Source: Candidatus Peregrinibacteria bacterium Greene0416_19
GTDB taxonomy: Bacteria; Patescibacteriota; Gracilibacteria; Peribacterales; Peribacteraceae
Reading direction: 5' to 3'
NCBI GenBank assembly: GCA_007375735.1
Contig: VMEW01000009.1
Span: forward strand, 48,569-112,568
Length of the DNA stretch: 64,000 nt
Below are positions 6,459 to 45,859 of this stretch, one piece after another (within the stretch, counting starts at the first letter, position 1; each line of letters opens with the position of its first letter). The notes beneath the pieces are model-generated. The model ran no database searches. It saw nothing but the letters and a program-made list of their open reading frames with translations, and had not been told where the DNA came from. The position numbers were made by a program, and so were the translations under genes.

Positions 6459-6533
6459 GGCCCCATCGTCTAACGGTGAGGACACAGGATTTTCATTCCT
6501 GTAATCGGGGTTCGATTCCCCGTGGGGCTGCCA
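6459..6533 (+). tRNA. tRNA-Glu (TTC)
   Basis: GGCCCCA...TGGGGCT-G-CCA acceptor; anticodon arm CAGGA-TTTTCAT-TCCTG; T-loop GGTTCGATTCC. Confidence 0.97.
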
Positions 6534-8079
6534 AACAATCTTTGATGGCATCCAATTCCTCAATTGCCGCGTATACAAGCGAAATTTTGAGGGCTTGCTT
6601 ACCCAAAAGACCTTCGTACGTCACGCCCTCCGGGAAGATGAGGCTCTGTAGGCGATATTGGTTCTCCACAGAGGAAATCTCCCAAAGTTTGTGAGAGTTT
6701 GCGAGAAAGGAACAGCAATGTGCGACGACCGTTTCCGCGCTCACCTCTTCGGTCTCCTTGGTGTTCCGTTCCATCATGGCCAGCGTGTAGTCGTTGCTGA
6801 CCTTCTCAAAATCCTTCCGCAACCCGTCCATCAAATCGAGGTTCGCGTGGTTCTGCTTCATCAGTTCGATCAGGGCTTGCTTCTGCTCCTTCAAGTTCTG
6901 AATCTTCCGCTGCAACTCCGCGTTCTCGCGGGTGAGCATCTTGTACTTCTCGTCCCACCTCTCCAAGACCGCCTCCCTGAACAGCGCCAAGAGCTCCTTG
7001 GAGGGCGTGACGGTCTTCAGGTAATCCACGAAAGCCCTCTGGCCTTCTTCGGCGGTGATGCGGAAGCGCCCACACGCCTTGTTCGGGCAGCCGTAATAGT
7101 AGTAGTACCTCCCGTGGCGGTTGTAGGACGGGTAGCCCGTCGAGGGGGAGCCGCAATGCGAGCAGCGGAGGAAGCGGCGCAAGGGGAACTGGGGATTGAG
7201 CTTCTTGCGGGGAAAATTTACCAGCCTCTTTCCTTGTCCGCTCAGCGCCTTCTGCAAGCGGTTCCACTCCTCGGGCGTGAGTGCGCCCTTGAACTTCGCC
7301 TGTATGAGCTTTCCGTCCGTCCACTTCGAGCAGAGCATCCCGCCGTAGAGGGGACTGCGGCAGATCTTCGTCCACGTCTGTCTGGTGATGAGATTGCGCT
7401 TCACCTCGCCGCTCTTGGCGCGGTACTTGCGGGAGCAGAATCCCTTGGCCCGCAATTCGGCGGTTACTTGCGTAATGGTGTGCGTTCCTGCCATCTGCTT
7501 CCGTAGACCGTAACATAAGAGTTCCCACTGCTGAGTATCTTCAGTGGGGAGAAGGATTGGCTTCTCTCGCTCGTCCCTTGCGTTACGGAATCCTGTTGGA
7601 GCAGAACGACACCAGTAGCCCTCTTGCGTCAGCATTTTCTCAACACCGATTGTTCGCTGGGTTTTTACGCGGTTTTCAAACTGCGCAAATATGGCGTGTA
7701 TCCCTTCCATCATTTCACCTTCTGCGGTTCCGCTGTTGAAAGACTGTGTAGAAAACTCCATTCGCACACCAATCTTCTTCAAGTTTTCCTTGATTACCGC
7801 ATATGTCGCAAGTCCTCCGCGACTTGCCCTATCCACTTTGTGTAAAACCCAAACACCAACCTTCCCTTCGTTCTTTACCGTGTAATCAATAACCTTCTCA
7901 AATTCCAGCCTGTCATGTTTTGATGCGGATTCGGCGATCTCAAATTCTTTCAGGAGCTTATATCCTTTCTGAGCCATGTATTCCGCGTTGTCCCTGCGCT
8001 GCTTCTCCAAGCTGTCACCAATCTTTTGTTGTTTGATCGTCGAGACGCGGAGAATGGAAATGGCATACTCGGAGCGCAT
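6493..8079 (-). CDS. large serine recombinase (resolvase + recombinase + Zn-ribbon + coiled coil)
   Basis: ILRVST catalytic motif, ESAS, KVDRASR, LRCSHCG...YYYYGC Zn ribbon; 3' end runs antisense through the tRNA; start could be 8145. Confidence 0.93.
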   Translation of the reverse strand: MRSEYAISILRVSTIKQQKIGDSLEKQRRDNAEYMAQKGYKLLKEFEIAESASKHDRLEFEKVIDYTVKNEGKVGVWVLHKVDRASRGGLATYAVIKENLKKIGVRMEFSTQSFNSGTAEGEMMEGIHAIFAQFENRVKTQRTIGVEKMLTQEGYWCRSAPTGFRNARDEREKPILLPTEDTQQWELLCYGLRKQMAGTHTITQVTAELRAKGFCSRKYRAKSGEVKRNLITRQTWTKICRSPLYGGMLCSKWTDGKLIQAKFKGALTPEEWNRLQKALSGQGKRLVNFPRKKLNPQFPLRRFLRCSHCGSPSTGYPSYNRHGRYYYYYGCPNKACGRFRITAEEGQRAFVDYLKTVTPSKELLALFREAVLERWDEKYKMLTRENAELQRKIQNLKEQKQALIELMKQNHANLDLMDGLRKDFEKVSNDYTLAMMERNTKETEEVSAETVVAHCCSFLANSHKLWEISSVENQYRLQSLIFPEGVTYEGLLGKQALKISLVYAAIEELDAIKDCLAAPRGIEPRLQE

Positions 8080-8141
8080 CGGCTTCAACTCTCTTCCATT
8101 ATAGCTATAAGAGCAAGGAACTGAGTTACTGTCAACTTCGA

Positions 8142-8324
8142 TCATCGGTCCGAGGGGGAATCAGTGGATGGGAGAGGACGATTGGGAAGGAGTTCTTTGA
8201 GCGTTTGTTCGAGCGTCACGTCCGCGAGGGCGTATACGCGGTCGCATAGCTCCTCCACCTCTTTGTCCGTGAGGTCGTTCGCCTTCTTGCCGAGGATTTT
8301 GCGACAGCGCTCGATGCTTAGCAT
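8142..8324 (-). CDS. small protein upstream of recombinase (possible directionality factor)
   Basis: 60-aa MLSIERCRKILG...LTDKEVEELCDRVYALA, overlapping the ATPase stop; function is inference. Confidence 0.65.
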   Translation of the reverse strand: MLSIERCRKILGKKANDLTDKEVEELCDRVYALADVTLEQTLKELLPNRPLPSTDSPSDR

Positions 8325-9685
8325 GGTGAGGGGTCGCCACTCACGGCGTCGGAATTGCTTAAAGGGGGTTTAAGGAAATCAGACCCCGTGTCTCCTTCGA
8401 GGTACCGCTTGCATTCCTCCCCAAGGAACCATCGCAGGTCTTCCTTCAGTCGTATGTGGTTGGACGTGTCGAGCGTATCGCCTTCCGCTTCCTCGCAAAT
8501 GCCGAGGATCACGAAAGTTCGCATCTCCTTATGGGCCGTTCCGGGGACGCAATTCAGTAATGCCGTCACGTCGCTCGTCTTGAGTTCCCCGCCCTTGCGG
8601 ATCAGCTCATGGAAGAGCGGCGCTCGGTGTCCGGGTGCGGAATCGAACGCCAGCAACATGACAATGCGCATGTCCTGCGGTGCAAGCTGCGTGCGCCCTG
8701 TCGCAAGCGCGTGCCCGCGAGCGATGTTGTAGAGGCACTGGTTGATACGGTTCTCGTGCTCCACGCTTGGCACGGTGTGGCTGAACTCTTTTTCGTCACC
8801 CTCCCATTTCTCCTTATAGACGATTACCTGCCCGCGCAGGCGGGCCAGAAGCACGGAGCATCGAGAAACGACTTTCAGGAGCGAATCGTCCTCGGTTTGC
8901 TTGTTCCATTCCACGCCCTGTGGATATTGATGCCAGAGGGTATGCAGGAACTCCCGCGTGACCTTGCGACATTCAAGTTCCTTGCTCTTGTAGGATGTGT
9001 CCTTGAGCTGATGGGCGAGTTCCTCTGCCGTTTTCCGCCTCAAGTGGAGACCGAGGAAGAAGATGCGCTGCCCGAGAGTACCCATCGCCTTCCAGACCCG
9101 TGGAGAGATGGGCGTCGAAGCCGCGAGCATCATGAAGACGTAGTCCCCGCGCAATGTCCTTCTGCCGTGGATACCGGTGTCTGTTGACAACCCCTCGCCG
9201 TCGAGGACGCGGGTGAGGATGCCGAGATTCTTCATCAGGTCGTCATCGCGTGCGGAGAAGATCGTCGCCATATCCCGCACAAGGAACATGTGGCGTCGGA
9301 TGCGAGTGAGTAGATCGAGCTTCGGCAGATTTTCCTTCTTTACATTCGCGGCATTCGAGACGAACGACGCGGGAGTGAAGGTGTCTGACGAGTAGGTGAT
9401 TTTCTCGATTTCGTCGAAGATGTTGATAGCAATGGTCTTGCCCGCTGCAGGTGAGTCCACCAGCACTAGCGCGAAGCAGTTCGTGACGTCGCGGATGAGC
9501 AATTGCGTGACGACGGACATACTTACTTCCACTGCCGTGGCAAGTTCCGGGAAATTCTGCTTGATGGTCGCGTGCCACTCCTCAAAGGTCGTGGCTTTCG
9601 AGGGTTCCGGCACTTTGGCCACGCTGAAGGTAGGTTCTGCCGATGGAAGAAATTTTTGCTGATCTTGCGATTGTTTCGGACTCAT
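8318..9685 (-). CDS. P-loop ATPase, MCM/AAA+-like helicase of the element
   Basis: Walker A-like DSPAAGKT, FLVRD, ILTRVLDGEG, LAAST, C-terminal wHTH-like region. Confidence 0.7.
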   Translation of the reverse strand: MSPKQSQDQQKFLPSAEPTFSVAKVPEPSKATTFEEWHATIKQNFPELATAVEVSMSVVTQLLIRDVTNCFALVLVDSPAAGKTIAINIFDEIEKITYSSDTFTPASFVSNAANVKKENLPKLDLLTRIRRHMFLVRDMATIFSARDDDLMKNLGILTRVLDGEGLSTDTGIHGRRTLRGDYVFMMLAASTPISPRVWKAMGTLGQRIFFLGLHLRRKTAEELAHQLKDTSYKSKELECRKVTREFLHTLWHQYPQGVEWNKQTEDDSLLKVVSRCSVLLARLRGQVIVYKEKWEGDEKEFSHTVPSVEHENRINQCLYNIARGHALATGRTQLAPQDMRIVMLLAFDSAPGHRAPLFHELIRKGGELKTSDVTALLNCVPGTAHKEMRTFVILGICEEAEGDTLDTSNHIRLKEDLRWFLGEECKRYLEGDTGSDFLKPPLSNSDAVSGDPSPC

Positions 9686-9849
9686 TCTTATAAATTGGAA
9701 AAAATATAAAAAGACGCCGCCCCCGGAGGGCGGATAGCAGCAGTCTTTGCCCTTACGGGATTGCAGTCAAAAAAGTGAGGGTTCCCGTACCCTATTTTTC
9801 TGATTTGGCTTCTGCAGATTCTATTGATAAGTACTACAGCTGAGAAAAC

Positions 9850-10254
9850 TCAGACCTCTTGTGGTCGATCAAAGCGTTGCAAATACACCGTGAACATCTT
9901 CTCACCACCGCTCGTGACGTCCGTTCTCACCCGCATGCCGTGATTCGCAGAGAGCAGCAGCTTCGTAATATGCGGGTTCGTCTTATTGCCGAGTCCATAT
10001 GTCTGCAGCAGCCTTCCCTGATTTGCCATCAATGCATCAGCGGCGTTTCGAAATTCCTCGTATTGCTTACACCATTCGTAGTACGTCTTCTTGCCGATGC
10101 CGATCTCCACGCATGCGCCCTCGACCGTCGGAACGACGTCGCCGTACTTCTTGGGATGCGCGGCATAGTTAAGCACCAGTGCCACAAGCGCTGGCGCGTA
10201 TTTCGATGGTCTACCGACTTTCCTCTGCATCGGCATTAACTCTGCTCTCGGCAT
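9850..10254 (-). CDS. terminase small subunit-like (DNA-packaging gp3-type) protein
   Basis: GRPSKY...PTVEGACVEIGIGKKTYYEWCKQYEEF...ITKLLLSANHG...DVTSGGEK pattern. Confidence 0.75.
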   Translation of the reverse strand: MPRAELMPMQRKVGRPSKYAPALVALVLNYAAHPKKYGDVVPTVEGACVEIGIGKKTYYEWCKQYEEFRNAADALMANQGRLLQTYGLGNKTNPHITKLLLSANHGMRVRTDVTSGGEKMFTVYLQRFDRPQEV

Positions 10255-10421
10255 CCGCAAAGGCAAGTTCAAAGCTGGCAAGTACACACAGCCGATTTGT
10301 AGCCTCACTGCGATGTGTTCGGACCTCGCAGGAGAAAAACCCCGCCCACTCTGACTCCAACACTTCCAAGCCGATTTGCAGGAGCCAGCAGCACTTCACT
10401 TTCTATCATGGATATCTCCGG

Positions 10422-10979
10422 TCAAGTCCGTGCGTGGGCACCACTTTTCCTATTCTCACTTTTCCATTGCTCTAGTTTGGCAATAACAAGACGATCCCGC
10501 ATGTGCATCCATACTTCTTTCCATTCAGCTGGGACTCTATCTGCCCAATCTAACAAATTCTCTTTGTCTTTGGGCGCAAATATTTTCTTTCCTTCCCGGT
10601 CAGCAATAAGTCTCAGACAAAGAACCAATGTGTCGTAAACAAAATTTACATCGCTCCAATAACTTTCTGCCAACGATTCACAAGCCCCAATCATCTTTGC
10701 ATACTTTCTGATGAGTGATTTCTCTCTCCCTCTTTTTGTGATAACGCCTTGATACTTCCAGGTCGTTGCCTCCACGTGCTGACGCCAGTATTTAAAGAGC
10801 GGCAGGTGGGAGTACGAGACGCAGGGTTTCAAATTTTTGTTATGCAAAAAATACGCCCAGCAATCGTGCTGATACACAAAGGCTCTCAGCTCAATCTCGC
10901 ATTTTCCTTTGCCATTGGGAATCATCTGCTTGGAAGGGGGATCATCGAGTTGAGATTTTAGCGCAATAGAAACTTTCAT
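10422..10979 (-). CDS. hypothetical protein (element cargo)
   Basis: 185-aa ORF in AT-rich segment. Confidence 0.55.
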   Translation of the reverse strand: MKVSIALKSQLDDPPSKQMIPNGKGKCEIELRAFVYQHDCWAYFLHNKNLKPCVSYSHLPLFKYWRQHVEATTWKYQGVITKRGREKSLIRKYAKMIGACESLAESYWSDVNFVYDTLVLCLRLIADREGKKIFAPKDKENLLDWADRVPAEWKEVWMHMRDRLVIAKLEQWKSENRKSGAHART

Positions 10980-10985
10980 CGCGTG

Positions 10986-11780
10986 TCATGCATTTAGAGT
11001 TGAAACATTACTTTTGGTCGCATTTTGATTTAAGGTTTGTTCTGCAAACGTCGCTCGAACTCCGTTCACAAGGAAGATGAGGAATAAAATTCTCACGAGC
11101 CAACTGGCTGAATTTATTTGATTAGCAAAGGCTAGGTCCGGATTAGAATTGAAATTCATGAGAGCAACTAGCGCTCCGAGAGTTTCGATGCAGTACAGGG
11201 ATAAGCCGGCAATCGCAGCGACGCGTGACATCTTCGCAGTAAAGTAGGAGCAAAGAGCGAGTGCAATTATCAGTGCAATTGTCATAAAGTAGGTTGCACC
11301 GTACAAATTGGGATGAAATAGTAGTTGAAGCACGTTCGCCAGCGCTCCGATTCCTGACACCACTGCCGAAAACCAAGCCGCTCTCCGACGCGCCTTCGGA
11401 TCACTGAGATCCGGCTTCATCCATCCGAAAAATGAAACCCCTGCATCCTTTCGCACATACTTCTTTGCCACTTTCTGCGCGACTACACAGCACACGGTCA
11501 GCAGCACATACCCCGTCAGCATATTGAAAGCGTTATCACCGGAACGTCTTAGGAGGAGTTGATCTCCTATGATCGTGACGGTCAAGATCGAGAAGAGCAT
11601 GCACAGGAACGTGGCGATCCAGGCGACCAAAAACAGAATCGTTCCTTTGGGTGCCACCGGGGACGGCGCATTGCGCAACTTTGATGCGCAGTGCTTGCAC
11701 TTGATTGCTTCTTTCTGGATTTCTTCAGCGCAGAAAGGACACTTTGTTTTCCCCGAAGACGGGGTAACACGCGAACCCAT
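10986..11780 (-). CDS. zinc-ribbon membrane protein
   Basis: KCPFCAEEIQKEAIKCKHC followed by ~6 TM helices. Confidence 0.8.
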   Translation of the reverse strand: MGSRVTPSSGKTKCPFCAEEIQKEAIKCKHCASKLRNAPSPVAPKGTILFLVAWIATFLCMLFSILTVTIIGDQLLLRRSGDNAFNMLTGYVLLTVCCVVAQKVAKKYVRKDAGVSFFGWMKPDLSDPKARRRAAWFSAVVSGIGALANVLQLLFHPNLYGATYFMTIALIIALALCSYFTAKMSRVAAIAGLSLYCIETLGALVALMNFNSNPDLAFANQINSASWLVRILFLIFLVNGVRATFAEQTLNQNATKSNVSTLNA

Positions 11781-12076
11781 ACTGATAGGGGAAAGGAGGG
11801 TGGAGCACTCGCATTCCCGGATACTCTTAAGGGACGCGCTGTGCTCCGTGCGCCAGCAATCGCGTCGGGACGAGTCCCTAGGGAATGCTGAACGGAGTCA
11901 GCCGCGCCCCTTACGGGGCACTCCTAGGGACGACCAAAGTCAGGACGTCAGGCCGATGCAATTACTGGCGCGTTGAAATTATGCCCCTGTTTTTCGGCAA
12001 AGGAAAGCGAGTTTGACGCACAAATAGAGGCCTCTTTACGACGAATAATTGCTGCTACACTGTCGTTGCGCCAGCA

Positions 12077-13024
12077 ATGCAACGAGTCTCTTCACCATCT
12101 GCGATCCATGCGGATCGTGTCCGATACATCAAGCTCGGACAAAAAGGCAAATGGGAAAAGGAGTGCCTTGGGAAAGGCATCATCCGTTTCGGTTTTGGTA
12201 CTGGCACTGCCGAAAGATTTCCTTTATGCCGTGACCATAGGTGGGACGACCTTACGGAATCTTTTAAGGCTACAGGAAAGAACAGAGGAACGGTGACCCG
12301 ATCCTTAAACGAAACGCGACTGTTCTTTAAGGATGATGGATCGATACTTTGGATCACATTCGTAGGTGAGCGGTTATGTTGGGGATTCTTGGAACCCGAT
12401 CCGGCTGAAAAATATCAGGACGGCAATACTGTCTTTCGTAAAATAAAGAATGGATGGCGATGGGCTGATGTGAATGGTGAGCAGCTAACCAAAGATCGAC
12501 TTTCGGGCGCACTGACGAAGCTAGCGGCGTATCAGGGAACATCGTGCAATATGAATGCGAACGTAGCGAAGTACGTCGTTCGGCGCATTAATGCCCAGAA
12601 ACCACGCGAAGTTGAGCGTGCTCTCATCATTTTGGAGAAAATGCAGGCATCAGTGTTGGGGATGATGAAGCTACTGGAACCGAAGGATTTTGAGATGTTG
12701 GTCGATCTTGTTTTTTCCATCAGCGGATGGCGTCGCCAAGGAATCGTCGGCAAAACCCAAAAGACACTCGACCTGGATCTCCTGTTGCCAAGCACCGGGG
12801 AACGGGCATTCGTGCAGGTCAAATCTAAAACCGATCAAGCGGTTCTTGATGAATACATTGGAAAACTGAATGAGCTCGGTCCTTATGATCGGATGTTCTT
12901 TGTCTACCATTCGGGGAAAGCAGAAACTGACGATGGGCGGGTAATTGTCATTGGACCAGAAAAAATAGCAGAAATGGCAATTGATGCAGGTCTAGTGACT
13001 TGGCTTATACGCAAGGTTTCTTGA
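12077..13024 (+). CDS. Mrr-like restriction endonuclease (PD-(D/E)xK, QxK variant)
   Basis: DFEMLVDLVFS..GW...LDLDL...AFVQVKS C-terminal motif. Confidence 0.8.
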   Translation: MQRVSSPSAIHADRVRYIKLGQKGKWEKECLGKGIIRFGFGTGTAERFPLCRDHRWDDLTESFKATGKNRGTVTRSLNETRLFFKDDGSILWITFVGERLCWGFLEPDPAEKYQDGNTVFRKIKNGWRWADVNGEQLTKDRLSGALTKLAAYQGTSCNMNANVAKYVVRRINAQKPREVERALIILEKMQASVLGMMKLLEPKDFEMLVDLVFSISGWRRQGIVGKTQKTLDLDLLLPSTGERAFVQVKSKTDQAVLDEYIGKLNELGPYDRMFFVYHSGKAETDDGRVIVIGPEKIAEMAIDAGLVTWLIRKVS

Positions 13025-13028
13025 ATTT

Positions 13029-13361
13029 CTAATGCATAATTGCCCTCATCTCATCGAGGATTCGCAACTCACTTTGTTCCCACTGCTTACTCTGTTTATC
13101 AGATTTGTAACCCATCCAAATGGAAATAAATAATGCGACTGAAGAAACAGCAATGGAGGCGATGAGGTGCAAGTTGGCTGTTCTCCCCGCTAACTCATTT
13201 GTCGCTACATTGATCAGCGGCTGCACGCGATCAAGTTCGACTCTACCTGCTGGTCTAGATATCAATTCATAAGCTTCTTTTAATAGATTCCTCAGGTCTT
13301 TTTTTGCCCATTCCGATGGAAAGCCAGGATGGTCATGGAGGAGATCGTAAATATCTTTCAT
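13029..13361 (-). CDS. hypothetical membrane protein
   Basis: 110-aa ORF, one C-terminal TM helix. Confidence 0.6.
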   Translation of the reverse strand: MKDIYDLLHDHPGFPSEWAKKDLRNLLKEAYELISRPAGRVELDRVQPLINVATNELAGRTANLHLIASIAVSSVALFISIWMGYKSDKQSKQWEQSELRILDEMRAIMH

Positions 13362-13418
13362 GGCCTTATGCTAATTTATATACATGGAAATCCCTAAAAC
13401 AAATGAACAACCCTGTAT

Positions 13419-14072
13419 CTATACCTTAATCATGGTTACCCCTTTCCGTGGCTGATGACGTCTGTCGACCGCTACCAAATAACCGATGTCTTGCAGATGT
13501 TCGTACAAGCGATCGATGCGCCAAAGAAGGTCTTTCACATCGATGCTAGCTAGAGCTGCCATGTTGTAGCTCTTCCCTTTCCTTGTTTGAGGGTAGCGAA
13601 AGAGCTCATTCTGGGGATCATCAATTTCCTCCTGCAGAATCTTCCGCTGTGCGAAGTATGCAATGAGCTCTTGCAACTCGGGAATGACCTGCTGCTGCAG
13701 ACGATCAATCTCTTCTTGGGTCAGGATGTCTTGATCCTCGTTGATTTGAATGGGGATCCATTCTGTTTCGAGAATGACCCTCTGAATCTTCGTGAAGAGA
13801 TGCAAGATGTCGTGTGACGACCTATCGGATTGTCCAAGATCGGAGAGCGTAGATTTCAAGAACAATTCAATGCCATGATGGATGTCAAAAAGCGCGGACG
13901 GCAGCAAATCGAAGGATGTGTAGCGGATTGGCAGCCACCCATCAGGCACGCGGGGATTATCTGTGCTCCACAGATGCACAGGTTCCAGCAGTTGCTGGCA
14001 AATGAGCCGAGCGGTTTTGAAATATCCTTGGCCATGGAAGAGTAAGCCTTCTTTTTCAAGGTTGCGTTGCAC
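13419..14072 (-). CDS. HEPN-like domain protein
   Basis: HGIELFLKS...SHDILHLF...FRYP pattern. Confidence 0.65.
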   Translation of the reverse strand: MQRNLEKEGLLFHGQGYFKTARLICQQLLEPVHLWSTDNPRVPDGWLPIRYTSFDLLPSALFDIHHGIELFLKSTLSDLGQSDRSSHDILHLFTKIQRVILETEWIPIQINEDQDILTQEEIDRLQQQVIPELQELIAYFAQRKILQEEIDDPQNELFRYPQTRKGKSYNMAALASIDVKDLLWRIDRLYEHLQDIGYLVAVDRRHQPRKGVTMIKV

Positions 14073-14104
14073 AAGTTATTCTTACACCATTAGCTGCAGA
14101 CTGC

Positions 14105-14200
14105 CTAGGTCGTTGCAGGTACAGTCATGGGTGCAATATCCTTCAAAACCTTATACCAGTCCATCATCGTCTCTAGCAGAGGGCTTGTGATTCGCATCCT
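14105..14200 (-). other. detached recombinase C-terminal tail 1 (RMRITSPLLETMMDWYKVLKDIAPMTVPATT*)
   Basis: In frame with the recombinase LAAP codons across the att core. Confidence 0.8.
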
Positions 14201-14299
14201 TGGGGCTGCCACGAAGCAGAGTTCGCTGCGGCGAACACGCTTCATGGCACAGCCACGTCATAATGACAGAGACTGCTTCGTGGTCCTGTAGCGATGCGT
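14201..14299 (+). repeat. 99-bp direct repeat copy 1 (att core + multi-hairpin palindromic element)
   Basis: Identical to 17374-17472; outer stem CCACGAAGCAG/CTGCTTCGTGG. Confidence 0.95.
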
Positions 14300-14300
14300 T

Positions 14301-14600
14301 TTCTCGGAAAAGCTCCGAGATCGCGTGATGACGCACAATGCCGGGAAAGTCACATCCACCAAAAGCAGGGTGCCTTGGAAACTCATCTTTTTTGAATGTT
14401 ACGCGGAGAAAGGCGATGCTTTGCGTCGTGAACAGTATTTGAAAACAACCTCAGGAAAGAGAGCTTTGAAGTTGATGCTGAGAAATACGTTGCAGATTGA
14501 AAGCGAATCCTTCACTCATCCACCGCCAATCACGTCGAAAAAGATCTCAGGAAACTTACCGGCCCAGCGATGGCGGTTTGTTCAGGGGTTCCTAAGGTGA
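14301..14600 (+). pseudogene. 5'-truncated GIY-YIG (UPF0213-like) nuclease
   Basis: FSEKLRDRVMTHNAGKVTSTKSRVPWKLIFFECY...ALRREQYLKT; the N-terminal GIY-YIG motif is absent. Confidence 0.8.
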
Positions 14601-14631
14601 TTCGCGGTCTCGGTTTGCTAATTCAGAAAAA

Positions 14632-14676
14632 GCCGCCACCCGAAGGTGACGGCCCGTGGTCAGATGAAGACTGACC
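14632..14676 (-). terminator. intrinsic terminator plus adjacent hairpin
   Basis: GCCGCCACC-CGAA-GGTGACGGC with A-run on the left; related copy at 17558-17601. Confidence 0.65.
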
Positions 14677-14700
14677 GTCTGTTTCTATCGCTCCTTTCCG

Positions 14701-15963
14701 TCAGTACGTCGGCAGCGGAGGAGTGCGCCCCAGGACGACGCGTTGTGATTTGGCGAGCGCCGCAGACGTGATCTCCTCATCGCAGGAGAAGTTGTAGAGC
14801 TGCTGATGGGATTCCAATCCATCGCAGAAGCTGTTTTCCGCCACGCCTCCCATGGTGCCGAGTTGCTTCAGAGCCAGCTTGCGCAGCATCCAGCCGATAG
14901 GCTCGGTGAGCAGCTCCTGCAGCGGGAACAGCATGTTGCAGTCGATCGGATCGTCCGCGCTCCACCGGTCCTTGAGCTCCAGGCTGTGGAGCGTGATGCC
15001 GCGCAGAGTCGCGAGGTGCAGCAGTCCGCCTGAATTGATGATCCCGCAGCGATGGAAGGACAACCGTTTGAGCTGTTTCCACTGCCGGGAAGACAGGCAG
15101 TCCAGCAGGACGCCGGGCGAGTCCAGGTGTGCCACGCTCCATTCTTCCAGCTGCTCCGCCAGCACGGTTTCGCTGCACTCCAGGAGTTCCCGTCGCAGAG
15201 CAGCGGTGCTCCCGTCGACTGGCCATGCATGTCTGATCTGCAGAGCCTTCAGTGCGGGGAGCTGAGCAGCTGCTTTCGCGATCTCGCGCAGCGCACCGGG
15301 AAAGGGACTGTAGAGGATCAGCGTCTCCAGATTCCCGCTTTTCGGCAGCATGCGCTCGATCGTGGCCGGTTCCGCGAACCAGAGCCCGAGTTCCCTGAAG
15401 CGGTTCTCGGGGAGGGCGTCGAGCGCGGCGATCATCTGCTTGTGGAAATCGCCTTTGCGTTGCAGTACGTCTCGCGCCTCCTGCTTGTTCCACACGCTGC
15501 AGGTGAGCGAGAGGATCGGCCACTGTTCCAGGAGCGCGGGGAGCAGCCGAGGCAGTGCCCTCAGATCACGCGGAGCGATATGCTCGACGAATCCCCGGCG
15601 GAATTGGGCATAGTCCTTTTCGCCGCCCCAGCTGTAGCTGCAGTTCGACCTCGCGAGATCCCTGGTTTCCGGTGTGAGCCACTGCTTGGCATGCACCAGG
15701 AGTTCGGTTTCGCGCAGCAGAAGCTCCTGGAAGCCGGGATGCGATTCGCTGATGTAGAGATCGCGGCACGCTTGGACGGCATACTGCACGCGGATGCATT
15801 CCGCCCGACGGCGAGCATGCGGGCCTCCGGTGTCTTCGAGCGTCGCTGCGTAGCTGAGCCGCAGATCCTTGTTCGTCGGATCGTTGGCGATCGCACGAAG
15901 CAGGTCATCTGTCTCGTTCATGGTTTGCTCTCCGATGATGAGATGTTTGGAAACTCCCTTCAC
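14701..15963 (-). CDS. TIGR02996 (repeat-companion) domain protein with LRR-like repeats
   Basis: LLRAIANDP...LRLSYAATLEDTG...RAECIRVQ...FRRGFVEHI, then L.xL.L repeats; start may be 15921. Confidence 0.8.
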   Translation of the reverse strand: MKGVSKHLIIGEQTMNETDDLLRAIANDPTNKDLRLSYAATLEDTGGPHARRRAECIRVQYAVQACRDLYISESHPGFQELLLRETELLVHAKQWLTPETRDLARSNCSYSWGGEKDYAQFRRGFVEHIAPRDLRALPRLLPALLEQWPILSLTCSVWNKQEARDVLQRKGDFHKQMIAALDALPENRFRELGLWFAEPATIERMLPKSGNLETLILYSPFPGALREIAKAAAQLPALKALQIRHAWPVDGSTAALRRELLECSETVLAEQLEEWSVAHLDSPGVLLDCLSSRQWKQLKRLSFHRCGIINSGGLLHLATLRGITLHSLELKDRWSADDPIDCNMLFPLQELLTEPIGWMLRKLALKQLGTMGGVAENSFCDGLESHQQLYNFSCDEEITSAALAKSQRVVLGRTPPLPTY

Positions 15964-16502
15964 GACGTCTTTTCTTCCGAGGTCAGGATATTCTCGGCCT
16001 TCAGTTTCTCTTTCAGAAGCTCGAGCAATCGGGTGGCCTCAGCTGTCTCCGAGGGGCGGTCCCAGCCGAAGCGACGGAGGCAGGTGGACGAATCGAAGTA
16101 CCCGCTTGCCCCCTTGCTGCGCCTGGAGTACGTCCCCGCTCCTACGAAGGAGTCAGAAGCGAGCTCGCGGTACGGCGACTTGGCTTCACGGGAGACGAAG
16201 TCCGGCCTTCCTTCTGCCGGGAAGCAGTAGTGAAGGGAGACCAAGACCGACAGGTCGTGGTCAAACGCCTCCGGAAACACGAAGACCAGAAGCTCTTCCT
16301 CGCGACGGATGAAGCAGAACTTCAGCTCCCGTCTCTTCTCGAAATTTTGACGCAGGTAGGCGATTTCCTCCGGGTCTTGAGTCACACTTCCTGGCCACGG
16401 GTTCTGGCAAATGAACAGCAGCTGTGCAATCACTGTTTCCTCCGATGATGAAAAGAAGCGATTCACCAACGCCCAGTGCGCTGGTGGACGGCTACTAAAC
16501 AA
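15960..16502 (-). CDS. hypothetical protein
   Basis: ORF coupled (GTGA overlap) to the TIGR02996 gene; start uncertain. Confidence 0.55.
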   Translation of the reverse strand: MFSSRPPAHWALVNRFFSSSEETVIAQLLFICQNPWPGSVTQDPEEIAYLRQNFEKRRELKFCFIRREEELLVFVFPEAFDHDLSVLVSLHYCFPAEGRPDFVSREAKSPYRELASDSFVGAGTYSRRSKGASGYFDSSTCLRRFGWDRPSETAEATRLLELLKEKLKAENILTSEEKTS

Positions 16503-16514
16503 TAATCCATATGG

Positions 16515-16545
16515 GTGGTAAATAACACCACAGGTATGTTATAAT
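16515..16545 (+). promoter_or_regulatory. extended -10 promoter (TG-T-TATAAT) with GTGGT-N7-ACCAC palindrome
   Basis: TATAAT 16540-16545, 6 nt before the ATG; inverted repeat 16515-16531. Confidence 0.6.
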
Positions 16546-16551
16546 CACCAC

Positions 16552-17310
16552 ATGAATACGGACCTCCTTCTGGAACTGGGTTTAAAGCGTAACGAAGCCA
16601 AGATTTATGAGGCGTTGCTGAAGTACGGCGGTTCCGGTGTCAGCACTATCGCGCTCCGTTCCAAGATTGACCGTCGCACTGTCTATGACACGCTTAGGAA
16701 GCTCGTTGATAAAGGATTGGTGTATGAGATCTTCGGACAGAAGGAAACGACCTATGAAGCCGTGGATCCGACAAAGCTCTTGGAACTCGCTCAAGAGAAG
16801 GTCCATAAGCTGGAAACGGCTATGCCGGGCTTCCTCTCTGCCTATCAGAAGCATCTCACTCCTGAACGTGCATATCTCTACAAGGGCATTGAGGGCGTGA
16901 AGAATTACATTCGCCTCATGCTCCAGACCGGAGAGGATATTTACACGCTAGGGGGCAAGGGCGCATGGCTAGATCCGCGCTTACAGATGTTTGTGGAGTG
17001 GTTTTTGAAGGAAGCTAAGAAGAAAGGAATCAAGCTGCATAACATCTATGACTATGAGGTGCAGAAATCCATGCCGCACGGGCCTCCCACCTTGAGCGCC
17101 AAATACAAGTTTTTGCCAAAAGAAGCATCGAGCAGCGGCGCAATGGATGTCTTCGGTGAGTACGTCGTGACTTTTTCAGGGATGGAAGTCGGCACGATGT
17201 CCGATGACCTCACGATTTTCGTCATCGCCAGTCCGAATCTGGCAGAGAGTTACCGCAAATGGTGGAAGGTTCTGTGGGACTCGTTACCGGATGTTCAGCG
17301 TCGGAACTAG
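16552..17310 (+). CDS. TrmB-family transcriptional regulator
   Basis: LGLKRNEAKIYEALL...IDRRTVYDTLRKLVDKGLV...YKGIEGVK. Confidence 0.9.
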   Translation: MNTDLLLELGLKRNEAKIYEALLKYGGSGVSTIALRSKIDRRTVYDTLRKLVDKGLVYEIFGQKETTYEAVDPTKLLELAQEKVHKLETAMPGFLSAYQKHLTPERAYLYKGIEGVKNYIRLMLQTGEDIYTLGGKGAWLDPRLQMFVEWFLKEAKKKGIKLHNIYDYEVQKSMPHGPPTLSAKYKFLPKEASSSGAMDVFGEYVVTFSGMEVGTMSDDLTIFVIASPNLAESYRKWWKVLWDSLPDVQRRN

Positions 17311-17373
17311 CGATTGAAGTACGTTAAACCATCCCACCATTCCCTCAATTACAGAGTTTGTGATACGACTCCG
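17284..17373 (-). other. detached recombinase C-terminal tail 2 (RSRITNSVIEGMVGWFNVLQSLVPTLNIR*)
   Basis: In frame with att core; homologous to tail 1. Confidence 0.75.
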
Positions 17374-17533
17374 TGGGGCTGCCACGAAGCAGAGTTCGCT
17401 GCGGCGAACACGCTTCATGGCACAGCCACGTCATAATGACAGAGACTGCTTCGTGGTCCTGTAGCGATGCGTAACAACCTCAGGAAAGAGAGCTTTGAAG
17501 TTGATGCTGAGAAATACGTTGCAGATTGAAAGC
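17371..17533 (+). repeat. third att copy (CCGTGGGGCTGCCA) + repeat copy 2 + 61-bp GIY-YIG remnant
   Basis: 17374-17472 = 14201-14299; 17473-17533 = 14444-14504 (144-bp deletion between). Confidence 0.93.
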
Positions 17534-17618
17534 AGAGATACGTTTCACGAATACAAAGCCGCCACCCAAAGGTAGCGGCCCTGGTCAGACTGAATCTGAC
17601 CTTTTCCTTCTCAATGCA

Positions 17619-36994: not shown

Positions 36995-37234
36995 ATGGAA
37001 GAAAAACGTGTCCCGGATGCGTATCTGAAGAGGCTTGTGCAAGGGAAAATCTCTTTTGATGAATCAAAAAACTTCACCATCCAGTACTACGACGACGAGG
37101 GCATGCAACAGCGCGTGCATGCCCTCATCGATGGCATGCGGGACTTCGACGAATGGAAGCACGCGCGCCTGATCTACGCGACAATGCGCACGATCTTCCT
37201 GCCCATCCACCGCCTGCTCAGGGAGATTGAATGA
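36995..37234 (+). CDS. small hypothetical protein
   Basis: 79-aa ORF divergent from uvrC. Confidence 0.55.
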   Translation: MEEKRVPDAYLKRLVQGKISFDESKNFTIQYYDDEGMQQRVHALIDGMRDFDEWKHARLIYATMRTIFLPIHRLLREIE

Positions 37235-37336
37235 ATGAGATGACTCATCGACGAAGAAAAGCATGTGCTCCGCGGACAGGCCTACAGGGAGTAAGCCGGC
37301 AATTGACTTTGTGAGACTTTTGCGTACCATTGACCA

Positions 37337-37388
37337 CGGTTTCGGCGCTACGCCGAAGGGTTTCGGATGAGCCATCGTCCGGGTTCCG
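37337..37388 (+). promoter_or_regulatory. structured 5' leader of hppA, possible Na+ riboswitch (DUF1646 motif)
   Basis: CGGTT-[hairpin]-AGGGTT-[hairpin]-GTTCCG right after the TTGACT/TACCAT promoter. Confidence 0.45.
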
Positions 37389-37425
37389 CACCCCCCCACT
37401 CCTAACGTTCTCCTCCCCAATTCCA

Positions 37426-44323: not shown

Positions 44324-45859
44324 CTACTCCTCGGAACCAAGATGCCGGAACACCTCACGAAAACGGAAATATTCCACCAGGCGCAACCCCGTGAATCTCC
44401 CCAGGATGATGTTGATGACGATGGTGATGAGGATCAGTTCCGGGTAGGCGAGGAGCATCGACTGGAAGGACGGCCACTGGACGACGAAGACGCACAGAAG
44501 CGCCGCACCAACGGTCTGGGCGATTCCCAGCACCGCCGAGAGCCACCCCTGCTCCGTCTTCGCCGTCAGGAAGCTCTCCGAGAGCGTGGACATGATGAGC
44601 AGGATGAACACGGTATCGCGCGCCAAGAGGAGGCCCAAGGATGATCCGAGCGCCAGGAGGATGAGGAGGATGATACTGCTCACGATCAGGATGATCGCCA
44701 CCTTGGGCACGTAGAGCAGGTGCCACCTCCGCATGGCCGCGCGGGTGGCGTAGCCGGTGCTGACGATGAGGATGAGGAAGATGAGGCCCACCCACCAGCC
44801 GAGCGCCAGGAAACTCAGCGCGACGATGGACGGGGCAAAGAGGCCGAACGTGGTGATGCCGATCACCTGCTTGAGGAACGAGAGAATAGTGGCGATGACA
44901 GGCAGCATGAGGAGGAGGATGACCGTCTGGCTGGAGACACCGTGGGTCAGCATGTACGTGACGAGCGCAGACAGGACGTTCCACGGGCGGACGCGCACGC
45001 GGGCATCCGTGAGCACCGCCACCTCCAGATTCTGCTGCGCCGCCTTTCCCAGGAATGCATCGATCGTCGGTGTCGTGAGGAGCGGCGTCATGGCCGCCGG
45101 ATGGGCCAGGAGTATCTGACGCGGGCGGAGCACCGCTTTCATACCGGCGGCAGTGCGCGCCAGGGTGGAGATGCCGCCGTCCGTCACCACCATCACGGTG
45201 CGACTGTTCAGGTTGAGGAGGGAGCGCGCAGGCCCCTGCGCTGCCTCCAGAAGACTCTGGAGTGCCAGGACACCGTCCGTCCACAGCACGATCGCGTCGG
45301 CGCCCAGGAACGCGGCTGCATGTTCGGCGAAGACGGCGGCGAGCGCTTCCTCTCCGCCCCGCACGGCGACTGCAACGCGGGGCCGCAGCACGCGGAGGTA
45401 CACCCCCGCCCCGCTCGCGGTACGCTCATGGAGAGCGATCTTCTCCCCCGGCACGCCCGGATCGGCCACGAGAACGACCTTGCGGCGGTACACGATCACC
45501 GTGTGGACGGCCTCCGAATGCAGAAGCTTGCGATTCTGCATGACACGCACGACCAGCCGGAACGTCAGCGTTCCATCCCGCTCGGGCGTGTAGATGGCAT
45601 CCACCGATCGGCTGAACGGCTCGGCCTGCTTGTCCAGGTACCACTCGTACCGTACGTCTCCGGCCCCGACGCGGCTGGCGGACGCATCCAGAATAATGGT
45701 CCGTCCGGCCATGGTGTCCTCCGGCCCCTGGATGAGCGCGAGCGGCTGCGCGCCGGCATCCTCGACCGGCGGGTCGAGGATGGGATCCTGCGCCAGGACA
45801 GGGACTGCCGCGCATACAAGAAGCGCGCTTGCGACTGCCCGGAGGAGAGTGATTCGCAT
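44324..45859 (-). CDS. PKD-like ectodomain + 7TM domain protein (7TM of the inactive-transglutaminase-fused family)
   Basis: Signal peptide, ILDASAS...YEWY; C-terminal LPVIAT...KQVIGITTFGLFAP, LLYVPK, LGRFTGLRLVEYFRF. Confidence 0.85.
   Translation of the reverse strand: MRITLLRAVASALLVCAAVPVLAQDPILDPPVEDAGAQPLALIQGPEDTMAGRTIILDASASRVGAGDVRYEWYLDKQAEPFSRSVDAIYTPERDGTLTFRLVVRVMQNRKLLHSEAVHTVIVYRRKVVLVADPGVPGEKIALHERTASGAGVYLRVLRPRVAVAVRGGEEALAAVFAEHAAAFLGADAIVLWTDGVLALQSLLEAAQGPARSLLNLNSRTVMVVTDGGISTLARTAAGMKAVLRPRQILLAHPAAMTPLLTTPTIDAFLGKAAQQNLEVAVLTDARVRVRPWNVLSALVTYMLTHGVSSQTVILLLMLPVIATILSFLKQVIGITTFGLFAPSIVALSFLALGWWVGLIFLILIVSTGYATRAAMRRWHLLYVPKVAIILIVSSIILLILLALGSSLGLLLARDTVFILLIMSTLSESFLTAKTEQGWLSAVLGIAQTVGAALLCVFVVQWPSFQSMLLAYPELILITIVINIILGRFTGLRLVEYFRFREVFRHLGSEE

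Follow-up and report, generated by a model that had tools for sequence, protein, structure and literature searches.

The gene of a large serine recombinase in the 64,000-nucleotide stretch of DNA analysed here (the window) spans its own attachment site, and integration therefore appears to swap the conserved last helix of the enzyme for a few tRNA-encoded residues. The preliminary description had proposed a recombinase divided in this way, and the conserved C-terminal segment is indeed parted from the gene and lies in frame at the far core, both here and at related loci. At the level of sequence, this split architecture and its recurrence in relatives are well established. We favour, with moderate confidence, a reading in which one unit, E2, was integrated by its own serine recombinase with an intragenic att site and a tail helix borne on the circle, and in which the neighbouring unit, E3, is a relic.

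The recombinase gene, its target and the two units

The target site, the recombinase, the attachment cores and the tails have the following positions in the window.

6459..6533, + strand: tRNA-Glu (anticodon UUC), integration target (ARAGORN; Rfam RF00005 tRNA, 62.8 bits)
6493..8145, - strand: large serine recombinase in its integrated form; 550 aa, or 528 aa when started at Met23 as in P0002
6520..6533, + strand: attL core, CCGTGGGGCTGCCA, common to att3, with the last 11 nt common to att2
14105..14200, - strand: tail 2, 31 codons and a stop, in frame with the core (HMM E 9.8e-6)
14201..14211, + strand: core copy 2 at attR, carrying the displaced 3' end of the tRNA
14212..14655, + strand: flank F, copy 1, native sequence downstream of tRNA-Glu with a decayed GIY-YIG cassette and a hairpin
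17284..17373, - strand: tail 3, 29 codons and a stop, in frame with the core (HMM E 6.9e-8)
17371..17384, + strand: core copy 3 at attR, with 14 nt the same as in the tRNA
17385..17581, + strand: flank F', copy 2 of the native flank, without 143 nt of copy 1

The recombinase has an N-terminal catalytic domain (Resolvase, PF00239, E 2.9e-18, residues 29-171, Pfam), and R33, V34 and S35, the catalytic serine included, are invariant in 22 sequences. Zn_ribbon_recom (PF13408) was matched exactly at its cut-off with 25.3 bits and Recombinase (PF07508) below its cut-off with E 0.0076; the zinc-ribbon cysteines C328, C353 and C358 are invariant and C331 is at least 90% conserved in 22 sequences. The Pfam matches were of the resolvase/serine type only, without a tyrosine-recombinase domain (Phage_integr_3). 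The frame crosses the core and stops within tRNA-Glu, giving the C-terminus ...DCLAAPRGIEPRLQE*. The final 41 nt of the ORF are antisense to the 3' part of the tRNA, and nine tRNA-antisense residues (RGIEPRLQE) close the protein after L-A-A-P.

The attL core corresponds to the 3' strand of the tRNA acceptor stem, the discriminator and CCA, and its opposite strand supplies the recombinase codons L-A-A-P. The tRNA-Glu 3' end, GTGGGGCTGCCA, is exact in 7 of the 9 relatives' loci shown and differs by 1-2 bases in the other two. In a scan of the window, the 11-nt core TGGGGCTGCCA had exact copies at 6523, 14201 and 17374 and nowhere else, so that the three core copies, coordinates and translations given in the preliminary description were borne out. 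Allowing at most one mismatch gave 4 matches against 1.46 expected, a number that 3 of 100 shuffles reached. Identity blocks compared across loci suggest that the crossover can be narrowed to GGGCT.

The att2 and att3 copies exceed bare 11-mers. Rightward of the core, 89 nt are identical (14212-14300 = 17385-17473), followed by a second identical block of 61 nt (14444-14504 = 17473-17533); the 143 nt between the blocks in the att2 flank copy are absent from the att3 copy. Flank F contains a GIY-YIG match at 14325-14600 (Pfam E 3.6e-5) and the repeats D1, D3 and D10, and F-like repeats occur after tRNA-Leu in contig C24 and also in contig C14. An empty site was found in a 460-nt contig (related run X2) comprising the tRNA T-arm, core, F and the att3 right flank, with neither E2 nor E3. 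This contig carries 114 extra nt as well as the 143 nt missing from the att3 flank copy, and therefore comes from another lineage; it is not an excision product of the array described here.

E2 occupies 6534-14211 of the window (7.7 kb) at the tRNA-Glu 3' end, and E3 follows it. Their genes are listed below.

8142..8324, - strand: 60-aa ORF, directly upstream of the recombinase with a 4-nt overlap
8318..13361, mixed strands: E2 cargo region
8318-9685, - strand: 455-aa ORF, common to L001 (tblastx)
9850-10308, - strand: terminase-small-subunit-like ORF (Pfam GP3_package E 1.2e-9; PHROG terminase small subunit E 8e-7)
10422-10979: E2 cargo ORF
10986-11780: E2 cargo ORF, zinc ribbon
12077-13024, + strand: E2 cargo ORF
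13029-13361: E2 cargo ORF
13419..14072, - strand: HEPN-domain gene (Pfam HEPN E 5.6e-5, 23.7 bits, cut-off 22)
14505..17283, mixed strands: E3 body, a remnant without recombinase; the 3.2-kb unit ends in tail 3
14701-15963, - strand, or alternatively 15052-16230, + strand: E3 ORF, no family
15960-16502, - strand: E3 ORF, no family
16552-17310, + strand: TrmB-type regulator (Pfam TrmB E 2.7e-19)

The GC content of the E2 cargo is 0.45-0.57, against 0.60-0.67 in the flanks. Besides the recombinase, the 60-aa ORF is the only gene conserved between the elements compared, with homologues in five of six related elements (L004, L005, L006, L014 and L017; blastp, E 1e-10 to 1e-6) and 61% aa identity to L001 over 56 residues. 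It matched no Pfam or PHROG family and may be an accessory or directionality factor. L001, the closest related element, has in common with E2 the recombinase, the 60-aa ORF, the 455-aa ORF and an orthologue of tail 2. In E3, tblastn (E<=1e-3) detected no recombinase remnant, and no protein of at least 50 aa was shared with any of the six compared elements at E<=1e-5. Because it has neither, and is absent together with E2 from the empty-site contig, we read E3 as the relic of an earlier integration.

The recombinase is present in a single copy in the 1.4-Mb genome, so the full-length gene can arise here only by joining att1 to att2 or att1 to att3; this supports, for this genome, the earlier proposal that the complete gene exists only after rejoining. 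By the coordinates, the proposed circles would measure 7678 bp (att1 x att2) and 10851 bp (att1 x att3), and in the 7.7-kb circle the HEPN gene would begin 32 nt past the tail-2 stop, downstream of the recombinase as had been predicted.

The tails, their relatives and the predicted structure

Read in the frame of the core, 14209-14108 gives AAPRMRITSPLLETMMDWYKVLKDIAPMTVPATT and 17382-17287 gives AAPRSRITNSVIEGMVGWFNVLQSLVPTLNIR. Compared directly, the two tails resemble each other only weakly (10 identical residues in 29 codons, 49% nt identity), and five of the ten identical residues use different codons. We built a profile HMM from the C-termini of 37 foreign full-length homologues, with the four junction residues removed. 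Among the 1688 six-frame pieces of the window it matched tails 2 and 3 alone (E 9.8e-6 and 6.9e-8; next best 2.2), and across the whole genome (37,828 pieces) tails 2 and 3 were likewise the sole matches (E 2.2e-4 and 1.5e-6; next best 0.093). Judged by this homology, the tail is the natural C-terminus of the recombinase family. Its motif is an amphipathic helix, R.R[IV]TN..I..M..W[YF]..L, with W18 and L22 present in every one of 21 tails.

Tail 2 shares 73% aa identity over 33 residues and 79.5% nt identity with the tail of L001, and tail 3 shares 39% aa identity with it. Since the closest related element carries its orthologue, tail 2 is the C-terminal helix that is cognate to this recombinase lineage. 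Tail 3 belongs to another lineage and was in all likelihood left behind by an earlier, decayed element, not stored as an alternative. At attR, an NTG codon always precedes A-A-P, and ORFs of 46 aa (14105-14245) and 44 aa (17284-17418) begin in the flank and run through the tails; the tail could consequently also be made as a free peptide, complementing or inhibiting the truncated enzyme in trans.

We found 94 recombinase homologues, that of the window included. Of the 93 others, 37 run on past [ML]A[AP]P into the tail motif, 32 have tRNA-antisense peptide ends (RGIEPR.., RRIELR.., GRIELP..) and 24 have other ends. Among 20 fetched loci, the recombinase stops within antisense tRNA-Glu in ten, all from related Peregrinibacteria/Peribacteria, and within antisense tRNA-Arg in two, and four have an intact gene with its tail. 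Two additional, more distant genomes have tRNA-Arg and tRNA-Met as targets. An in-frame tail adjoins a 9-13-nt core repeat at 6 of the 10 tRNA-Glu loci, and when 23 loci were scanned with the HMM (11,107 pieces, E<0.01), 12 free-standing tails turned up in 10 of them, in frame and 1.4-10.5 kb away. Tail homologues beside att copies, which the preliminary description had suggested seeking in other genomes, are therefore present in related loci. The same scan gave no tail at L003 and L013, with 8.5-10 kb of flank; at the tRNA-Met locus, an in-frame piece at 8.2 kb, unscored by the HMM, has N, W and L at the family spacing. Intact genes with tails lie on contigs of 9.33 Mb (P0026) and 5.3 Mb (P0076) and inside a 74-kb contig (L011), so a chromosome can harbour a full-length gene; these may be tandem arrays. 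A search of IMG/VR found no relative, so that no independent circular genome is known from that source.

The AF2 model of the homologue P0017 has a mean pLDDT of 83.7, with values below 50 at the junction (535-540) and of 71-86 in the tail helix (547-561). It includes a predicted coiled coil (helices 387-435 and 440-468, pLDDT ~90), and its fold matches the serine integrase complexes 9y66_A and 9dxh_A (Foldseek E 2e-17, 509-521 columns). A complex prediction of body residues 300-538 with tail 2 gave an ipSAE of 0.83, against 0.00 for the best of three controls, with contacts at recombinase residues 392-400, 468-480, 487-502 and 522-527; the runs agreed in at least 74% of contacts, with a partner pLDDT of at least 63. 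Among 80 solved complexes 58 reached this docking mark, and among 110 mismatched pairs 2 did so, counts that apply here only roughly since our own alignments were used; split-gene halves tend to pass such a complex test regardless of biology. The predictions thus make the tail a helix, attached by a flexible linker and packed against the coiled-coil base and the subsequent helices.

Proposed integration mechanism and alternative explanations

In the reading we favour, E2 would have inserted at tRNA-Glu, in a small Peregrinibacteria-like genome, by means of its own large serine recombinase. The attachment site would lie inside the last part of the recombinase gene, at the codons L-A-A-P, antisense to the acceptor end and CCA. 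On the free circle the gene would encode ~570 aa ending in the conserved amphipathic helix. Recombination of attP with attB, the crossover being placed within GGGCTGCCA, would join the gene body to the tRNA, adding nine tRNA-antisense residues and a stop, and would leave the helix-coding piece 7.7 kb off beside the displaced tRNA 3' end (attR). The tRNA-Glu 3' end from the crossover to CCA would now be provided by the element. The native flank F appears to have been duplicated, which would restore a tRNA-plus-F target at which E2 integrated after the earlier, related element E3. Several observations weigh against this reading: neither an attP junction nor an excision product of the array turned up in the contigs of the runs, in which rare forms would not show; L003 and L013 gave no tail; full-length genes occur within large contigs; IMG/VR yielded no relative; and, as set out below, the reconstructed sites showed no dyad symmetry and the window's own P arms no clear +5 motif.

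We infer that the full-length protein is the integration-state enzyme, and that the truncated one is either the excision-state enzyme, possibly acting with the 60-aa upstream ORF, or a weakened enzyme. As the gene end is swapped at each recombination, each event would rewrite the enzyme that catalysed it. It is conceivable, and we propose it only tentatively, that the integrase is self-rewiring: recombination would add or remove a helix at the coiled-coil base, on which directionality factors act in other serine integrases, and direction would be encoded in the topological state of the integrase's own gene. A separate directionality factor would then be less needed or unneeded.

The tails might alternatively be maintained C-termini, such that excision at att2 or att3 deliberately yields two circles and two enzyme variants. 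This would fit tails 2 and 3 both being intact, in frame and matched by the family profile, the att1 x att2 and att1 x att3 combinations both being formally attL x attR pairs, and the recurrence of extra tails at L004 (two) and L012 (three). We nevertheless consider it improbable: of the two tails only tail 2 has its orthologue in the closest element, neither a recombinase nor a gene shared with the compared elements lies between att2 and att3, the 1-kb segment between the L004 tails holds neither recombinase remnant nor flank repeat, two of the three L012 tails have no junction residues, and both units are missing from the empty-site contig, as would fit two separate insertions. The two interchangeable, stored tails of the preliminary description are not supported in that form, given the identities to the L001 tail (73% and 39%) and a tail-3 unit of 3.2 kb without recombinase or protein shared with any of the six compared elements. 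Suicidal integration, in which the truncated enzyme is inactive and the element stays locked in until a related element supplies the full-length enzyme, has been proposed for archaeal SSV-type integrases (in passages of PMC7253208 and PMC8371274). The tail is strongly conserved and is predicted to be part of a folded C-terminal bundle, so its loss could cripple the enzyme, and decayed remnants without recombinase build up at the same tRNA (window, L004, L012). We judge this unlikely, however, since just ~30 of ~570 residues are lost, while the enzyme retains its catalytic, recombinase, zinc-ribbon and coiled-coil parts in full. Moreover, the integrated recombinase genes are open in 10 of 10 tRNA-Glu loci, free-standing tails retain the motif in 10 loci, which is unexpected for trapped and decaying elements, and an analogous change left the Mx8 integrase active (as related in part of PMC6070905).

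We give little credence to the tail's extreme C-terminus being a degradation signal that gives the circle enzyme a short life and the integrated form a long one, or the opposite. The window tails end in PATT and LNIR, and conservation within the tail falls on the helix instead of on the end. The endings that do suggest a tag come from a small count of related loci: the last residue is V or A in 10 of 13 Peregrinibacteria-type tails, among which ..TLA[HIT]V recurs, and 10 of 37 tail-carrying homologues end in A, against 10% of the 1299 long ORFs in the genome, whose own tmRNA tag ends in ..VLAFA. It is very improbable that the overlap is incidental, with tail conservation owed to constraint on the DNA of the attP arm, through recombinase binding and tRNA mimicry, and not to a functional peptide. 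The codons for R-V-T-N are antisense to a T-loop-like GGTTCG motif, with the near-invariant Asn codon inside, and the junction codons are fixed by the tRNA end, but conservation reaches ~75 nt from the core, past the 40-50-bp sites given for studied serine integrases in a part of 10.1101/2025.05.02.651858. The invariance of W18 and L22 (21/21 tails), the synonymous differences between tails 2 and 3 (49% nt identity, different codons for 5 of 10 identical residues), the retention of frame in 8 of 9 core-adjacent tails (by HMM scan; L004a only by core-repeat comparison) and the confidently predicted helix and docking all speak for a peptide.

Relation to known integration systems

As far as the account in PMC6070905 extends, Mx8 IntP is a closer, bacterial precedent than the archaeal split integrases. 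There, as here, the 3' part of the integrase gene contains attP and integration yields a recombinant gene with a new 3' end; host-encoded residues likewise replace the C-terminal end of the integrase studied here. Integration is described as changing the properties of Mx8 IntP without inactivating it (part of PMC6070905; also the titles of Tojo 1996 and Magrini 1999). As a tyrosine recombinase, Mx8 IntP differs in mechanism and site logic from the serine recombinase described here, and the piece swapped here is a ~30-aa helix predicted at the coiled-coil base.

The archaeal precedents named in the preliminary description apply in part: the SSV-type gene is split, whereas the pNOB8 integrase is listed as 'classical' in the relevant passage of PMC8371274. 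The SSV-type 'suicidal' integrases (SSV1, pTN3, pT26-2) resemble the present one in having the att site in frame, usually a tRNA target and a partitioned gene (passages of PMC7253208 and PMC8371274). They are tyrosine recombinases divided into two inactive halves, whereas here a serine recombinase exchanges only its extreme C-terminus (~30 residues). SSV-type splitting is called exclusive to archaea in a passage of a 2021 review (PMC8371274), and the host here is bacterial (CPR). Our enzyme resembles a bacterial equivalent, built on a serine recombinase, of both Mx8 IntP and the SSV-type integrases of archaea, and would extend self-splitting integrases past archaeal tyrosine recombinases. We found no published description of this self-splitting serine integrase family.

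The mycobacteriophage integration-dependent immunity of Broussard et al. 2013 reportedly also involves an attP inside a coding region, where removal of a C-terminal segment changes the behaviour of the protein. The split gene there is said to be a repressor, the integrase a tyrosine integrase and the removed part a degradation tag, whereas here the integrase gene itself is split.

The phage serine integrases (phiC31, Bxb1, A118/LI, SPbeta SprA) have the same domain set and predicted fold as the enzyme described here. The known ones have attP outside the int frame, protein-coding or intergenic targets and a separate RDF protein. Serine integrases are leading tools for large-DNA insertion, and their one-way behaviour normally needs a separate directionality protein. 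A family with an integration-rewritten C-terminus, predicted at the coiled-coil base, would offer a testable model for built-in, self-limiting directionality. It is at this base that the studied serine integrases have their directionality set, and the title of Abe et al. 2021 makes the SprA extreme C-terminus part of a directionality 'toggle switch'. A 2014 database paper gives the serine family as without known tRNA 3'-end targets; the present family adds serine integrases aimed at tRNA 3' ends, namely Glu, and Arg and Met in distant relatives. It would also add a class of very small integrative elements (~3-10 kb by core/tail spacing) in Peregrinibacteria-like genomes to the poorly known CPR mobilome.

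Serine integrases use short attP and attB sites with a 2-bp crossover. Reconstructed attP and attB sites showed no dyad symmetry (means of 5.1-8.8 of 26 matches, against 6.5 at random), and the window's own P arms have no clear +5 motif (5/7 at 23 nt and 4/7 at 30 nt by eye). All 7 tRNA arms have a GGTTCGA-like motif that begins 25 nt from the CCA end. The distance is 30 nt for 5 of the 9 attR arms and for all 4 intact attP sites (one tied with 42 nt). The relatives may thus resemble the phage serine integrases in their short sites and 5-nt motif shift between P and B arms, a spacing that would match the 5-bp shift of the zinc-ribbon motif between attP and attB, nearer the centre in attB, that is described in a part of PMC3783163.

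The split recombinase and its detached C-terminus

The window is part of contig C26 of a 1.40-Mb genome (37 contigs, 97.9% complete). By their titles, the nearest relatives bearing the recombinase are Candidatus Peregrinibacteria or Peribacteria MAGs. Two features of the window overlap.

6459-6533, plus strand: tRNA-Glu(UUC) gene
8145 to 6493, minus strand: large serine recombinase ORF of 550 aa, with Pfam domains

The recombinase ORF matched Pfam Resolvase (E 2.9e-18), Zn_ribbon_recom exactly at the cut-off and, weakly, Recombinase. Its final 41 nt are the antisense of the 3' part of tRNA-Glu, so that the protein ends in ...DCL-AAP-RGIEPRLQE* with the stop in the anticodon-loop region. A core of 11 nt, TGGGGCTGCCA, consisting of the tRNA acceptor 3' strand, discriminator and CCA, occurs in exact copies at 6523, 14201 and 17374 (att1, att2 and att3). 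Translation in the recombinase frame, starting at the copies at 14201 and 17374, yielded the two peptides given in the preliminary description, here called tail 2 (14105-14200, minus strand) and tail 3 (17284-17373, minus strand).

We collected 94 homologues and classified the C-termini of 93, leaving out the window's own protein. In 37 of them, [ML]A[AP]P is followed by R.RVTN..I..MI.WY..L..LP and about 10 further residues; 32 run on for no more than about 10 residues, as antisense translations of tRNA T-arms (RGIEPRLQE, RRIELRLTD, GRIELPLTD, AGFEPAT...), and 24 have other ends or are truncated. A profile built from the 37 foreign tails only, with the four junction residues removed, was searched on six-frame pieces and gave two significant matches both in the window (1688 pieces; E 6.9e-8 and 9.8e-6, next best 2.2) and in the whole genome (37,828 pieces; E 1.5e-6 and 2.2e-4, next best 0.093). 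These matches, the only significant ones, coincide with the two tails named in the preliminary description and lie in the same frame, which confirms that observation. By this profile match, the two tails are the missing natural C-terminus of the recombinase family. In the alignment of 21 tails, W18 and L22 never vary and N9 hardly does; the comparison of tail 2 with tail 3 covers 29 codons, too short and too diverged for a useful codon-level selection test.

The place of the tail in the protein fold was modelled with AF2 on P0017, a natural full-length homologue with 49% identity to the window protein in the 57-row alignment used (50% by BLASTP). The model has a mean pLDDT of 83.7, falling below 50 at the junction (535-540) and reaching 71-86 in helix 547-561, and it matches the solved serine integrase-DNA complexes 9y66 and 9dxh (E about 2e-17) as well as phiC31 integrase. 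In a two-chain fold of the window recombinase body (300-538) and its own tail 2 (34 aa), the complex scored 0.83 and the best of three controls 0.00; the mark applied to this score was reached by 58 of the 80 solved complexes and by 2 of the 110 mismatched pairs, counts that hold only roughly since our own alignments were used. At least 74% of the contacts agreed between runs, with a partner pLDDT of at least 63. Tail residues 7-28 are predicted to contact body residues 392-400, 468-480, 487-502 and 522-527, which correspond to the base of the rising coiled-coil helix and the helices after the returning one (P0017 model, offset 4). Because halves of one gene tend to pass this test, the prediction supports the tail being a docked part of the fold, not a regulatory role. 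The predicted docking place at the coiled-coil base is suggestive of relevance to directionality. The extreme C-terminus of SprA was reportedly named by Abe et al. in 2021 as part of a directionality toggle.

Several further features of the tails were observed. Ten of 13 Peregrinibacteria-type tails, from loci L001, L004-L006, L012, L014-L017 and L037, end in V or A, four of these in TLA[HIT]V; tails 2 and 3 do not fit this pattern. The tag of the genome's tmRNA (C22:49423-49827) ends in VLAFA. Tails 2 and 3 sit in small minus-strand ORFs (14105-14245, 46 aa; 17284-17418, 44 aa), both of which open with an identical MKRVRRSELCFV within the duplicated flank. At the far site of every locus, A-A-P/R is preceded by an NTG codon (ATG, GTG, TTG or CTG), since its TG derives from the tRNA CCA. 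It is conceivable from these reading frames that the tail is made as a free peptide. The longer homologues P0061 (590 aa) and P0068 (599 aa) have an end resembling the 60-aa ORF upstream of the recombinase (MSIDRCRELL...), as if a recombinase frame ran on into the small ORF of an adjacent unit.

An attP within the integrase gene, so that integration alters the enzyme, is known for Mx8 IntP (PMC6070905) and for archaeal SSV-type integrases (PMC8371274). The window enzyme shares this principle, but it is a serine recombinase whereas both known systems are tyrosine recombinases. A 2021 review describes self-disrupting recombinases as exclusive to archaea (PMC8371274), and according to a 2026 survey RNA targets are preferred by tyrosine integrases and not by serine ones (PMC13626063). 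The accessible portions of PMC4383910, PMC6070905, PMC12884075, PMC9580842, PMC13626063, PMC3783163, PMC11722253 and PMC8371274 describe no serine integrase aimed at tRNA genes. Likewise, the literature accessible to us yielded no serine integrase with attP in its own reading frame, although the supplementary tables of TIGER/Islander and ProBord might list such cases. We have high confidence in the split recombinase architecture as read from the sequence, and moderate to low confidence in the functional reading of tail exchange.

Recurrence in relatives and site geometry

Recombinase 3' ends were sorted at 20 related loci from species-representative genomes. The stop lies inside antisense tRNA-Glu at ten loci (L002, L004-L007, L012-L015 and L017) and inside tRNA-Arg at two distant acidobacterial ones; four planctomycete-type loci (L008-L011) have an intact gene with the tail attached, and at the remaining four the 3' end is cut, broken or otherwise. 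In two more distant members of the same class, the recombinase overlaps tRNA-Arg and tRNA-Met. When the tRNA-end repeat was sought upstream of each recombinase, an in-frame tail adjoined a 9-13-nt core copy at six of the ten tRNA-Glu loci, at distances of 3.8-10.5 kb. An unbiased scan with the tail profile, covering 11,107 pieces of 23 loci at E<0.01, detected 12 free-standing tails spread over ten loci (L001, L004, L005, L006, L012 with three, L014, L015, L016, L017 and L037). The same scan found none at L002, L007 and L038, where the flank on the needed side is under 2.5 kb, none at L003 and L013 despite 8.5-10 kb of flank, and none at the two acidobacterial loci. At the tRNA-Met locus an in-frame piece lies 8.2 kb away; its N, W and L are spaced as in the family, but the profile does not score it.

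The elements have just two genes in common (five of six compared), the recombinase and an ORF of roughly 55-60 aa immediately upstream of it, and the cargo varies. Searches of Pfam and PHROGs gave no family for the 60-aa ORF, the 455-aa ORF of E2 (the integrated 7.7-kb element, 6534-14211) or the ORFs of E3 (the 3.2-kb unit between att2 and att3). In sequencing run X1, one contig of depth 4.4 lacks 168 nt, or 56 codons, within the 455-aa ORF (window 9244-9413), an in-frame length variant in part of the population.

The family is patchy: of 201 genomes sampled across the class, 12 contain it (E<=1e-30, this genome counted). A scan of IMG/VR returned 21 pattern matches and no relatives. When relatives were searched for synteny or an unoccupied target, 38 of 41 genomes matched in the tRNA alone, and the tRNA loci of nine relatives had no recombinase and unrelated flanks. 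Intact genes are found on megabase contigs (P0026 and P0076). The planctomycete-type contig C37 of genome G042 (L011/L034) carries an intact recombinase with tail (37146-38750) and, on the same strand 6.5 kb downstream, a duplicated C-terminal fragment of 112 aa (45225-45539) with a near-identical tail; there is no tRNA within 21.5 kb.

In most loci the tRNA and the far copy are identical over GGGCTGCCA; the identical stretch in L012 is CTACGGGCT, after which the discriminator is mismatched. Assuming a single crossover position for the whole family, it would lie within GGGCT, inside the Ala-Ala-Pro/Arg codons. Dyad symmetry in the reconstructed attP and attB (22 centre positions, nine site pairs) gave no signal, with means of 5.1-8.8 of 26, and did not place the crossover. 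In all seven tRNA arms examined, a motif resembling GGTTCGA begins 25 nt from the CCA end; its start is at 30 nt in five of nine far-end arms and all four intact genes (in L008 tied with 42 nt). A shift of the zinc-ribbon motif by the same 5 nt between attP and attB was found by Rutherford et al. (PMC3783163). Because both arms in the window are degenerate at that position, the shift is only suggestive for E2. The codon of the tail's near-invariant Asn is part of the motif, and the first tail residues may therefore also be constrained at the DNA level.

Origin of the two tails

E2 and L001, its closest related element, have the recombinase, the small ORF, the 455-aa ORF and the tail in common, and the L001 tail is 73% identical to tail 2 versus 39% to tail 3. 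No recombinase remnant was found in E3, and its proteins of at least 50 aa had no match to the six elements compared. We conclude that tail 2 is the cognate tail and that tail 3 is most likely a relic. The preliminary description had proposed two stored, interchangeable tails; both do match the family profile, but the comparison with L001 and the lack of a recombinase in E3 leave tail 2 alone as the cognate. Judged by similar arrangements at L004 and L012, relic tails accumulate at tRNA-Glu elsewhere too. L012:4721-6827 has three tail-like pieces, two without the junction residues, and L004:1053-2203 has two tails 1 kb apart, between which a recombinase remnant was sought and not found.

The att2 and att3 copies are followed by the same flank (F), with 89 and then 61 identical nt, between which the att2 copy has 143 nt absent from the att3 copy; F contains a decayed GIY-YIG gene. 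In a 460-nt contig from the study's second run, X2, the order is tRNA-Glu T-arm, core, F and att3 right flank, and the native target is thus tRNA-Glu followed by F. Relative to the lineage of this contig, E2 and E3 are by their arrangement insertions. Its F has 114 nt absent from both window copies and the 143 nt kept only by the att2 copy; these indels assign it to another lineage and not to an excision product. The extra 114 nt are positioned at window 14299/14300 (and 17472/17473), and with the extra nucleotides that lineage may have a complete GIY-YIG gene.

A first element would destroy attB on entry, and a duplicated F would restore the tRNA-core-F junction and allow a second element in. 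A circle could gain F by aberrant excision and re-enter by homologous recombination; we infer that such an F-bearing circle would yield exactly F-X-tail3-core-F. Among the contigs of runs X1, X2 and X3, of which no X3 contig could be placed here, none joins 14200 or 17373 to 6534, a result with no bearing on circles, as rare forms are invisible in contigs. Depths in X1 were 4.9-8.9 for the listed E2 contigs, 11.9 and 12.9 for the flank contigs and 11.2 for the E3 contig, a weak hint that some cells are without E2, though depth is unfit to rank the parts.

The repeat CCACGAAGCAGA[CG]TTCGCTGCGGC... was observed in C24:1-1250, C14:10017-10063 and window 14212-14300 and 17385-17473. The repeat-bracketed unit resembles a small GIY-YIG cassette linked to the 3' ends of tRNA genes. 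In C24 the repeat begins right after the CCA of tRNA-Leu(tag) and recurs about 1.1 kb on, the two copies bracketing an intact GIY-YIG gene and one further ORF, and in C14 a third copy is preceded by a core-like GGGCTGCC.
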